From Escherichia coli (GTDB lineage Bacteria; Pseudomonadota; Gammaproteobacteria; Enterobacterales; Enterobacteriaceae): 64,000 nt of DNA. Shown here piece by piece: positions 13,535 through 14,272 of the stretch (positions are counted from its first letter, which is position 1; each line of letters starts with the position of its first letter). The stretch is from the NCBI RefSeq assembly GCF_003334405.1, contig NZ_QOWM01000001.1; one strand, written 5' to 3'. The notes below the pieces were generated by a model that saw nothing but the letters and a program-made list of their open reading frames with translations, did not search any database and was not told where the DNA came from. Both the position numbers and the translations under genes were made by a program.

Positions 13535-14272
13535 ATGTCACAGTCTACATCCGTGCTTCGTCGTAATGGATTTACTTTTAAACAGTTTTTTGTTGCTCAC
13601 GATCGCTGTGCGATGAAAGTGGGAACGGATGGTATTTTATTGGGCGCATGGGCACCGGTGGCTGGGGTAAAACGTTGCCTTGATATCGGCGCGGGTAGCG
13701 GGTTGCTGGCATTAATGCTGGCGCAGCGAACCGATGACAGCGTGATGATTGATGCAGTTGAACTGGAAAGTGAAGCTGCCGCGCAGGCGCAGGAAAATAT
13801 CAACCAGTCCCCGTGGGCAGAGCGGATTAACGTCCATACGGCGGATATTCAGCAGTGGATCACACAGCAGACAGTACGCTTCGATTTAATCATCAGTAAC
13901 CCACCTTACTATCAGCAGGGAGTAGAGTGCTCGACACCTCAACGGGAACAGGCTCGCTATACCACTACGCTTGATCACCCATCGTTGCTGACCTGTGCGG
14001 CGGAGTGCATTACCGAAGAGGGATTTTTCTGCGTAGTGCTGCCAGAGCAGATTGGTAATGGTTTTACGGAGCTGGCATTAAGCATGGGCTGGCATTTACG
14101 TTTGCGGACGGATGTGGCGGAAAACGAAGCGCGACTGCCGCATCGGGTGCTGCTGGCATTCTCCCCGCAGGCGGGAGAATGCTTTAGCGATCGCTTAGTC
14201 ATTCGTGGGCCAGACCAGAACTATTCCGAAGCGTATACGGCGCTGACCCAGGCTTTTTATCTGTTTATGTAA
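13535..14272 (+). CDS. yfiC: tRNA (adenine37-N6)-methyltransferase
   Basis: 245 aa from [15 protein letters not shown]...; SAM-binding DIGAGSG and NPPY motifs; track ORF extends 40 codons upstream. Confidence 0.9.

Follow-up and report, generated by a model that had tools for sequence, protein, structure and literature searches.

Four convergent gene pairs overlap at their 3' ends within a 64,000-nucleotide stretch of the Escherichia coli chromosome (the window, from whose first base positions are counted). They are probably best understood as ordinary tail-to-tail overlaps in which the elements that form the 3' ends of the transcripts have been placed within the coding sequence (CDS) of the partner gene. 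The four overlaps are real, ordinary and already known, and all four pairs are catalogued as convergent excludons (NAR 2025, PMC12288877). The sole modest novelty is a probable 3' stem-loop of nadB embedded in trmN.

An earlier note on this DNA had described convergent overlaps of 16, 9, 4 and 4 bp, which open reading frames, raw sequence and RefSeq annotation confirm. The annotation was that of a strain 100% identical across the compared 3-kb stretch and of K-12 (K-12 position = 2726299 - window position). The genes trmN (yfiC; 13535..14272, + strand), coding for a tRNA(Val) m6A37 methyltransferase, and nadB (14257..15879, - strand), coding for L-aspartate oxidase, share the 16 bp TTATCTGTTTATGTAA at 14257..14272, and hcaT (58453..59592, + strand) and csiE (59584..60864, - strand) share the 9 bp TCATGCTGA at 59584..59592. 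The 4-bp overlaps are TTAG at 1848..1851, between kgtP (553..1851, + strand) and yfiM (1848..2171, - strand), and TTAA at 28942..28945, between tadA (28442..28945, + strand) and mltF (28942..30498, - strand). In all four pairs each stop codon lies inside the reading frame of the partner, on opposite strands, and because stop codons are unambiguous the overlaps are not artefacts of start-site annotation. TTAG and TTAA are of the 4-nt YTAR type, in which two stop codons interlock and which is the modal convergent overlap in prokaryotes (Lillo & Krakauer 2007, PMC2174442); the other two are 9 and 16 bp long. Overlaps are found in 4 of the 11 convergent pairs of the window, the remaining seven being gapped by 44-208 nt. 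Based on the 58 convergent overlaps counted in E. coli (Lillo & Krakauer 2007, PMC2174442), ~0.8 are expected per 64 kb (Poisson P(>=4) ~0.009), a value to be read with the knowledge that such a cluster somewhere is unremarkable, given that the genome divides into ~72 such windows and the present one was chosen post hoc.

Conservation of the overlaps was compared across species. In a set of 80 Enterobacteriaceae species, the trmN/nadB overlap measures exactly 16 bp in 76 of the 79 loci having both genes. This length is nearly invariant because the conserved Phe-Tyr codons of TrmN (TTY TAY) give TAR in the nadB frame, the nadB stop being the reverse complement of the Y-T-A that runs across these codons. 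FYLFM* is the conserved C-terminus of TrmN, with FYL-x-(F/Y)* in relatives at 45-54% identity; the C-terminal tail of NadB is variable among genera except for its last residues, which are set by trmN codons. Where TrmN identity is down to 50%, nadB is followed by a 70-nt spacer carrying a hairpin and a U-rich tail, and the TrmN end FYL-x-(F/Y) is kept. A word-indexed search for TrmN homologues did not go below 70% identity or beyond Enterobacteriaceae; relatives outside the family were reached by a representative search and contig look-ups. A conserved overlap can hence follow passively from the conserved C-terminus of one protein, and not from selection for overlapping. The 4-bp overlap of kgtP and yfiM is also present in S. 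bongori, E. kobei and C. sakazakii, and in Pluralibacter the two genes abut. The tadA/mltF overlap is not conserved: Enterobacter kobei and Pseudescherichia have the 4 bp, and in Salmonella the two genes are 50 nt apart, the spacer containing a hairpin plus U-tract, as expected if the overlap is a neutral, labile feature.

The earlier note had further held that transcription of each partner must run into the coding region of the other, and this is borne out for kgtP, csiE and tadA by published 3'-end, bicyclomycin and double-stranded RNA data. The kgtP 3' region inside yfiM, delimited by Term-seq, p19 capture and folding (1852..1946, + strand), contains Term-seq 3' ends at 1902 and 1933 (K-12 2724397(-) and 2724366(-); Adams 2021 supplement), 51 and 82 nt into yfiM, and a p19-captured RNase III duplex of 21 nt at 1852-1872, labelled 'kgtP yfiM' (Huang 2020 supplement). 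Hairpin 1 (1878-1895, z -2.7) and hairpin 2 (1925-1946, z -3.1) fold in the same region, the latter being conserved across five genera. The 3' end at 1933 sits within the 5' arm of hairpin 2, a position that the trimming model leaves unexplained. A Rho termination region for kgtP read-through lies at 2557 (+ strand), antisense to pssA and ~700 nt beyond the kgtP stop (K-12 2723742(-), Rho score 19, p 9e-91; Adams 2021 supplementary file 2). The same file places a Rho termination region for tadA read-through at 29235 (+ strand), antisense to mltF and 290 nt beyond the tadA stop (K-12 2697064(-), Rho score 9.6, p 2e-18), so that both genes show read-through sensitive to bicyclomycin, under which Rho is inhibited. 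Folding of the tadA-sense RNA yields a hairpin inside mltF at 28961..28991 (+ strand), 16-46 nt beyond the tadA stop (dG -16.8, z -2.7), with no U-tract after it; the three other genera compared do not conserve its sequence. The published bicyclomycin data also hold an mltF-internal Rho entry (score 3.2) upstream of the mltF stop.

At the hcaT/csiE junction, a csiE mRNA 3' end maps inside hcaT at 59537 (- strand), 47 nt beyond the csiE stop (K-12 2666762(+), 'primary csiE, antisense hcaT', low read count; Adams 2021 supplementary file 1), and local structure at this end is weak (z -0.3). Folding of the hcaT-sense read-through RNA gives a very stable hairpin inside csiE (59761..59802, + strand; dG -25.5, z -6.8), 169-210 nt beyond the hcaT stop and among the strongest in the whole window. 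Of 5426 E. coli genomes, 5341 have it as a single copy, in every case inside csiE, and it is a candidate embedded terminator for hcaT. A weak candidate in the trmN-sense read-through RNA is a hairpin within nadB at 14431..14468 (+ strand), ~160-200 nt beyond the trmN stop. It is the lone outlier among 40 nadB-side windows (mean z -1.63, 41% of loci below -1.64), is more stable on the + strand in 80% of loci, and has a dG of -14.1 and a z of -2.4 in E. coli.

The additional claim that these junctions contain no terminator stands for the canonical hairpin-plus-U-tract but not beyond it, since hairpins near mapped ends, Rho regions and a conserved stem-loop directly behind the nadB stop lie in the partner CDS. 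Simple promoter and terminator consensus scans of all four junctions gave nothing above shuffle expectation, and on the strand that matters no hairpin is directly followed by a U-rich tail. Such a tail occurs only on the trmN strand, downstream of the nadB-proximal hairpin described below, where termination would delete the trmN stop codon. G+C-rich stable hairpins occur up to ~210 nt past the kgtP, nadB, tadA, hcaT and trmN stops (z -2.4 to -6.8), the csiE and the E. coli nadB-proximal structures not being significant; nor are strong hairpins significantly overrepresented past the eight stops (~2 against 0.75 expected among the 40 strongest of the window). Up to ~400 nt downstream of all eight stops, the C/G ratio reaches 1.7-2.15 (beyond the window's 95th percentile), a C-rich, G-poor composition that is nevertheless generic to RNA antisense to coding sequence. 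The Adams 2021 supplements list no junction Rho entries for nadB, trmN, hcaT, csiE or yfiM; no nadB or yfiC 3' ends were found in Adams 2021, TERMITe or SMRT-Cappable-seq data, and none at the junction for hcaT, yfiM or mltF in the published supplements searched. Read-through into the partner is not specific to pairs whose CDSs overlap. The convergent, non-overlapping pairs yfiE/srmB, yfiF/ung, glnB/hmp and yphB/yphA, as well as the shoB side, also have Rho regions antisense to the partner, and 276 of 370 E. coli convergent operons (~75%) have overlapping 3' ends, by 286 nt on average (Conway 2014, PMC4161252). Genome-wide, 51.5% of Rho termination regions are published as antisense to genes, and exonucleases are reported to trim Rho-terminated RNAs.

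Comparative folding of the nadB-sense RNA identified a conserved hairpin inside trmN (14203..14252, - strand), the probable nadB 3' stem-loop. It begins 5 nt past the nadB stop and is embedded in the trmN codons for RGP(D/E)Q..YTALTQ. The structure was drawn manually, guided by folds of single sequences, and then assessed by pair counts, against slid controls and by synonymous shuffles, a procedure that favours structure. For the 18-pair structure, 84.7% of cells are paired compared with 27-48% in slid controls. Synonymous shuffles yield a mean z of -2.18, with 70% of loci below -1.64, compared with a gene-wide mean of -0.18, scores that overstate independence because of the kinship among the 80 species; codons that vary freely in the loop and flanks of these sequences serve as an internal control. 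Among the synonymous columns of trmN, the three with the least variation fall in the stem (MWU p=0.0014). Mean dG is -23.3 on the - strand versus -16.0 on the + strand, and the underlying G-U strand asymmetry is not independent evidence of selection because it stems mostly from two or three columns that are fixed by amino acids. True covariation in the hairpin is slight; RNAalifold returned an empty consensus structure for 81 aligned trmN/nadB junctions, and Rfam has no family at this junction, even at E<=10. The E. coli version lacks the inner stem (dG -16.2, z -0.64), and in this window the two outermost pairs are unformed and the hairpin begins 8 nt past the stop. Because the hairpin is degenerate in E. 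coli, the comparative signal may not extend to this strain. We disfavour a + strand reading in which the hairpin is an intrinsic terminator of trmN and the overlap supplies its U-tract: the trmN mRNA would lose its stop codon, and on that strand the hairpin is less stable by ~7 kcal/mol.

A second hairpin inside trmN, GCAUUCUCCC-7 nt-GGGAGAAUGC (14156..14182, - strand), was identified by folding and shuffles 75-101 nt beyond the nadB stop (dG -21.4, z -3.9 against dinucleotide shuffles). Synonymous shuffles give z values of about -2 to -4.7 for most Escherichia, Citrobacter and Salmonella loci, three being near 0, and the hairpin is weaker outside these genera (mean z -1.3 to -1.4). We tentatively propose, from comparative sequence evidence, that the 14203-14252 stem-loop, together with 14156-14182 in Escherichia, Citrobacter and Salmonella, may be a functional determinant of the nadB mRNA 3' end written in trmN; we regard this as possible, though short of likely. 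If it is true, the stem-loop would halt NadR-regulated nadB transcripts, or stabilise them, ahead of any antisense passage through trmN and then into srmB, which is on the nadB strand. The cost to trmN would be frozen rare synonymous codons (GGG, CCA), the codon choice of one gene being dictated by the need of its convergent neighbour to end its transcript. The same may then apply to kgtP hairpin 2 in yfiM and to the -25 kcal/mol hairpin in csiE 3' of hcaT, and recoding of trmN, for instance in codon-compressed genomes, could alter nadB expression.

Transcripts that overlap at their 3' ends might alternatively serve regulation. As convergent excludons, high transcription of one gene would lower its partner via polymerase collision and/or RNase III, so that derepressed nadB may lower trmN, or sigma-S-induced csiE may lower hcaT. 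All four pairs are indeed among 165 published convergent excludons, a label that requires transcription to overlap in 50% or more of 58 RNA-seq sets, and as a class such pairs have lower single-cell co-expression and higher synteny (PMC12288877); the 21-nt RNase III duplex also falls exactly at the kgtP/yfiM junction. Yet the ExcludonFinder criterion (coverage <50% in each CDS flank) follows near-automatically when CDSs overlap, p19 data failed to validate convergent excludons for the authors of the list (PMC12288877), and p19 double-stranded RNA density is ~38-fold lower at convergent than at divergent overlaps. For nadB and trmN, the excludome list is the sole evidence of transcript overlap, and no p19 duplexes for trmN/nadB, tadA/mltF or hcaT/csiE are among the listed entries. 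The conserved hairpin just past the nadB stop moreover suggests selection for an early transcript end and not for extension, and Salmonella does without the tadA/mltF overlap. We therefore consider a regulatory role of this kind unlikely; nothing indicates regulatory use of the 3' overlap at these four pairs.

Hairpins at or near the overlaps might also act as bidirectional terminators of the collision type, at which both polymerases pause and head-on and trailing collisions bring about release, with neither Rho nor a U-tract. A preprint (Wang 2022, 10.1101/2022.10.23.513370) proposes such terminators for ynaJ-uspE and many E. coli convergent pairs, and describes them as located between convergent pairs, unlike intrinsic terminators, Rho-independent and hairpin-requiring. 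The nadB-proximal hairpin adjoins the overlap, has no U-tract on the nadB strand, and is followed on the trmN strand by the U-rich last codons. Against this, efficiency is reported to climb with expression, and the genes considered here are weakly expressed; tadA and kgtP read-through is Rho-sensitive; and on the trmN strand termination 7-9 nt past the hairpin, itself ~7 kcal/mol weaker there, would produce an mRNA without a stop codon. Collision-driven termination thus appears improbable at these junctions. That an overlap is no true one, one partner not being a genuine gene or its end being misplaced, is next to impossible and was rejected: yfiM is short (107 aa), has a TTG start and lies directly behind the pssA terminator, but stop codons leave annotation no choice, YfiM is a DUF2279 lipoprotein, mostly of 107 aa in many genera and with a lipobox in its sequence, the TrmN, NadB, TadA, MltF, KgtP, HcaT and CsiE ends are identical in the annotations of K-12 and strain M217, and homologues of TrmN, TadA and YfiM occur across many genera.

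Under the preferred reading, in which 3'-end elements lie in the partner gene, an overlap would originate when one or both frames extend to the first stop codon beyond the stop of the partner. Because no intergenic DNA remains, 3'-end elements sit in the partner's CDS. Polymerase exiting each gene would enter its partner antisense, as the published transcript data document, and the untranslated, C-rich antisense RNA would be ended by Rho some hundreds of bases in, as seen for kgtP and tadA and presumably for the others. The RNA would then be trimmed back to stable hairpins near the stop codon, following the published model. For nadB, the hairpin a few bases past the stop would be maintained across Enterobacteriaceae by frozen synonymous trmN codons, whereas the 16-bp length would be fixed passively by the TrmN Phe-Tyr codons. 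The sense/antisense 3' overlap can make double-stranded RNA, as captured at kgtP/yfiM. Overlap of CDSs hence does not equal absence of a terminator: signals shift into the reading frame of the neighbour, which bears on genome recoding, on assumptions of synonymous-site 'neutrality' and on terminator prediction that skips coding regions. The overlaps as first noted matter little, convergent overlaps and overlapping 3' transcription being routine in E. coli.

Several known systems share these features. The four pairs do not differ in kind from described convergent overlapping genes (Fukuda 2003; Lillo & Krakauer 2007, PMC2174442), with short 3'-3' overlaps, 4-nt interlocked stops as the modal class, and an origin in which a stop codon is lost and the ORF lengthens. 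The question of terminators at such overlaps was already raised in 2007, when a Rho-independent terminator, necessarily within CDS, was predicted for 23 of the 116 genes in E. coli convergent overlaps (PMC2174442); what trmN/nadB adds to this picture is the cause of the invariant 16 bp, along with an embedded hairpin that comparative data support. Convergent excludons (Sesto 2013; ExcludonFinder, Sanmartin et al. NAR 2025, PMC12288877) likewise comprise opposite-strand neighbours with overlapping 3' transcripts, but their defining outcome is mutually exclusive expression, whereas the four listed pairs are known by transcript overlap. Collision-driven terminators such as ynaJ-uspE (Ju 2019; Wang 2022 preprint) are similar in having convergent genes, a junction hairpin and no canonical terminator; as the preprint describes them, they are intergenic and work best at high expression, whereas the hairpins here lie in weakly expressed CDSs and two junctions are Rho-dependent. 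Convergent operons in general (Conway 2014, PMC4161252; ilvA/ilvY, Sameshima 1989) also have complementary 3' ends, and the four pairs differ from them solely in that CDSs overlap as well as transcripts. With Rho termination followed by trimming to a stem-loop (Peters 2012; Dar & Sorek 2018; Adams 2021, PMC7815308), they share bicyclomycin-sensitive antisense regions (tadA, kgtP), C-rich downstream RNA and mapped 3' ends near hairpins without U-tracts. The difference is that here both hairpin and Rho loading region must lie within protein-coding sequence, and because the protective hairpin and the Rho loading region are encoded in its CDS, the synonymous sites of the neighbour are constrained.

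The four convergent CDS overlaps claimed in the earlier note are present exactly, both by ORFs and in the raw sequence. Gene ends were taken from the RefSeq annotation of strain M217 and from K-12 MG1655 across the window, whose orientation is opposite to K-12 numbering; the conversion K12 = 2726299 - window is valid at the kgtP, tadA and csiE junctions when published coordinates are compared with the annotation. trmN (yfiC; 13535..14272, +) and nadB (14257..15879, -) share 16 bp, kgtP (ending at 1851, +) and yfiM (from 1848, -) share TTAG, tadA (ending at 28945, +) and mltF (from 28942, -) share TTAA, and hcaT (ending at 59592, +) and csiE (from 59584, -) share 9 bp. 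The modal convergent overlap is 4 bases, formed by two interlocked stop codons (Lillo & Krakauer 2007, PMC2174442). RefSeq annotates eleven convergent pairs in the 64-kb window, seven of which are separated by spacers of 44-208 nt. With 58 convergent overlaps counted genome-wide in E. coli (Lillo & Krakauer 2007), ~0.8 are expected per 64 kb and the Poisson probability of at least four is ~0.009; as a genome holds ~72 such windows and this one was picked post hoc, the cluster is unremarkable. ExcludonFinder likewise saw its excludons to be without regional enrichment (Sanmartin et al., PMC12288877).

Transcripts enter the partner gene, as had been proposed. Term-seq places kgtP-strand 3' ends at K-12 2724397 and 2724366 (window 1902 and 1933), which lie in antisense orientation to yfiM, 51 and 82 nt beyond the kgtP stop, and a csiE 3' end at K-12 2666762 (window 59537), 47 nt beyond the stop, with few reads and classed as "primary csiE, antisense hcaT" (Adams 2021, PMC7815308). 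Rho acts on the read-through of tadA and kgtP, with two bicyclomycin-defined regions, one antisense to mltF at 2697064(-), 290 nt beyond the tadA stop (score 9.6), and one antisense to pssA at 2723742(-), ~700 nt beyond the kgtP stop (score 19) (Adams 2021). Transcripts of kgtP, csiE and tadA thus continue into their partners. Double-stranded RNA forms at kgtP/yfiM, where Huang et al. (2020) captured a duplex of RNase III type (UGACGGGUCAGUUGCCAGACG with its complement); it is annotated "kgtP yfiM" and maps to window 1852-1872, right at the junction. For nadB and yfiC, the published supplements searched (Adams 2021, TERMITe, SMRT-Cappable-seq) gave no entry. Rho regions antisense to the partner are also found at non-overlapping convergent pairs of the window, namely yfiE<->srmB and yfiF<->ung in both directions, and further at hmp, yphB and shoB (Adams 2021), and 51.5% of Rho regions genome-wide are antisense to genes. 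Run-on is therefore not peculiar to CDS overlap. As a general route, all eight transcript ends may arise by Rho-dependent termination followed by trimming to embedded hairpins.

At kgtP/yfiM and tadA/mltF, the comparison covered few species only. The kgtP/yfiM overlap is 4 bp in Salmonella bongori, Enterobacter kobei and Cronobacter sakazakii, and the two genes abut in Pluralibacter. Within yfiM, a kgtP-sense hairpin at 1925-1946 (+; AGCCGC...GCGGCU) is found in 5/5 genera, and the position of a second one at 1878-1895 carries some hairpin, of differing sequence, in 4/5. The kgtP 3' end at 1933 (+) does not follow a hairpin but falls in the 5' arm of the conserved one at 1925-1946, which trimming to a hairpin does not explain; endonuclease cleavage or pausing could account for it. 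At the other end of yfiM, the strong intrinsic terminator of pssA (AACCCCGUCCUGUACGGGGUU and a U-tract, 2212..2192, -) is followed at once by a GGAGG Shine-Dalgarno motif and then the yfiM TTG start at 2171 (2169-2212, -); from this arrangement, yfiM expression seems to depend on terminator read-through. A Rho region lies near the yfiM start (K-12 2724116(+), window 2183; bicyclomycin, Adams 2021). tadA and mltF overlap by 4 bp in Enterobacter kobei and Pseudescherichia, whereas in Salmonella a 50-nt spacer bearing a hairpin and U-tract separates them, so this overlap is labile. In the Salmonella Derby spacer (L084, 3053-3102), the U-tract overlaps the last mltF codons, and the hairpin looks REP-like. 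In csiE, a candidate element lies 169-210 nt beyond the hcaT stop, a hairpin of -25.5 kcal/mol (z -6.8) that is single copy in E. coli genomes. Abundant p19-captured dsRNA clusters occupy the csiE 5' part (60400-61000; U00096.2 2663459-2664122) and are accompanied by antisense transcription start sites (Huang 2020), so csiE has an antisense RNA of its own inside the gene, separate from the overlap with hcaT.

The trmN/nadB junction was followed most widely. Its region (13000-16000) has a match in 5426/5426 complete E. coli genomes, several at 100% identity, and a TrmN genome scan yielded 80 loci from about 25 Enterobacteriaceae genera (71-97% identity). The genes are convergent in 79/79 loci with both, and the overlap measures exactly 16 bp in 76 of them; two have 8 bp and one has 12 bp. 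TrmN ends in FYLFM*, whose Phe-Tyr codons (TTY-TAY) read TAR on the opposite strand in the nadB frame; the nadB stop is thus held constant, and three conserved trmN codons fix the distance between the stops. In more distant relatives (45-54% TrmN identity) the FYL-x-(F/Y)* ending persists but the genes do not overlap: in one lineage they are separated by a 70-nt spacer, with a hairpin and U-rich tail ~10 nt downstream of the nadB stop, in another by a transporter gene, and the remainder lack nadB at this position. For this reason the overlap looks like a derived Enterobacteriaceae state, reached by loss of the spacer and extension of the variable NadB tail into trmN; more generally, the overlaps may be the neutral outcome of spacer loss and ORF run-on. 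The trmN frame itself stays open as far back as a GTG at 13415 (285 aa), 40 codons 5' of the annotated ATG; the start at 13535 is consistent with the 245-aa length across genera, leaving 13415-13534 as an upstream open stretch. One locus (L040, CACSKA010000009.1), titled Chryseobacterium sp. 18061, carries an Enterobacteriaceae-type trmN/nadB arrangement (81% TrmN identity) nearly identical to that of Citrobacter sp. 18056 (L034), and its assembly is probably mislabelled or contaminated.

A hairpin adjoining the nadB stop shows synonymous-site constraint. Folding of 45-nt windows along trmN in 76 species, each against synonymous-codon shuffles, gave a gene-wide mean z of -0.18 (sd among window means 0.45), and 14207-14251 reached a mean dG of -19.1 and a mean z of -2.18, with z < -1.64 in 70% of species, which are related to one another. 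The hairpin (14252..14203, nadB-sense, -) comprises 18 pairs starting 5 nt past the nadB stop, or 8 nt past it in this window, where the outermost two pairs are absent. Paired cells amount to 84.7%, versus 27-48% with slid partners, and covariation is small, yet above shuffles; RNAalifold returned no consensus structure for the junction alignment. Outer stem codons are nearly fixed (Gly GGG 77/81, Pro CCA 63/75, Leu CTG 76/81, Thr ACC 75/81), and loop and flank codons vary freely in the same sequences. Among 95 conserved-residue columns of at least four-fold degeneracy, the three whose synonymous entropy is lowest all belong to the stem (Mann-Whitney p=0.0014). In 97.5% of species the hairpin is more stable on the nadB strand (mean dG -23.3 versus -16.0 on the trmN strand), with 205 G-U pairs versus 48, an asymmetry deriving mostly from amino-acid-fixed columns. 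The hairpin would serve the nadB mRNA, whose read-through would run antisense across trmN and then into srmB, on the same strand as nadB. That a conserved stem-loop immediately follows the nadB stop speaks for selection on a defined nadB transcript end, and against selection for interference.

In E. coli, the inner stem of this hairpin is lost (dG -16.2, z -0.64), and a second hairpin at 14156-14182 (-; dG -21.4, z -3.9) is strong there and in the closest relatives. Its surrounding window (14147-14191) has a mean z of -1.42 across the 76 species, and most Escherichia, Citrobacter and Salmonella loci fall at z ~-2 to -4.7 relative to synonymous shuffles, three being close to zero. On the nadB strand, no U-tract follows either hairpin, and 120-240 nt downstream the sequence is C-rich (C/G up to 2.15). 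The earlier statement that terminators are lacking applies to canonical terminators with a U-tract alone; hairpins lie past the nadB stop, and Rho acts on tadA and kgtP read-through. On the nadB side, a single outlier window on the trmN-sense strand (14428-14472, z -1.63) hints at a candidate distal trmN 3' hairpin. Hairpins of -22 to -24 kcal/mol, as stable as the window's intergenic terminators, also lie within the CDSs of yfiF (7966-8005), lepB (21081-21120), yphG (44756-44795), yphE (49071-49110) and hcaD (54186-54225). Rfam matches to ES036/CssrF beside yfiE (11953-11995) and naRNA4/CssrE beside trmJ (63778-63849), presumably small RNAs derived from REP elements, fall on strong hairpins in spacers of non-overlapping convergent pairs. 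Rfam also matches AsrC, the antisense RNA of rseC (507 bits, 18462-19293, -), a further documented antisense transcript.

The observation is confirmed and its interpretation partly supported; as originally written, the finding is ordinary and already described. The sole new detail is the comparative evidence for a nadB 3' stem-loop inside trmN, together with a passive account of the invariant 16 bp. That terminators of convergently overlapping genes necessarily lie within coding sequence was raised by Lillo & Krakauer (2007), who predicted Rho-independent terminators for 23/116 genes in such overlaps, and complementary 3' ends occur at 276/370 convergent operons, with a mean overlap of 286 nt (Conway et al. 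2014, PMC4161252). The four pairs belong to the convergent overlapping genes, showing every defining feature tested. They differ from canonical intrinsic terminators since the U-tract is missing, and published data document Rho-dependent read-through for two of the eight transcript ends (tadA and kgtP). All four are listed as convergent excludons by a coverage criterion (RNA-seq signal flanking each CDS stays >50% of the gene mean) that overlapping CDSs satisfy almost by construction; dsRNA data gave no validation of convergent excludons (Sanmartin et al.), and the functional feature that defines the class is antagonistic expression.
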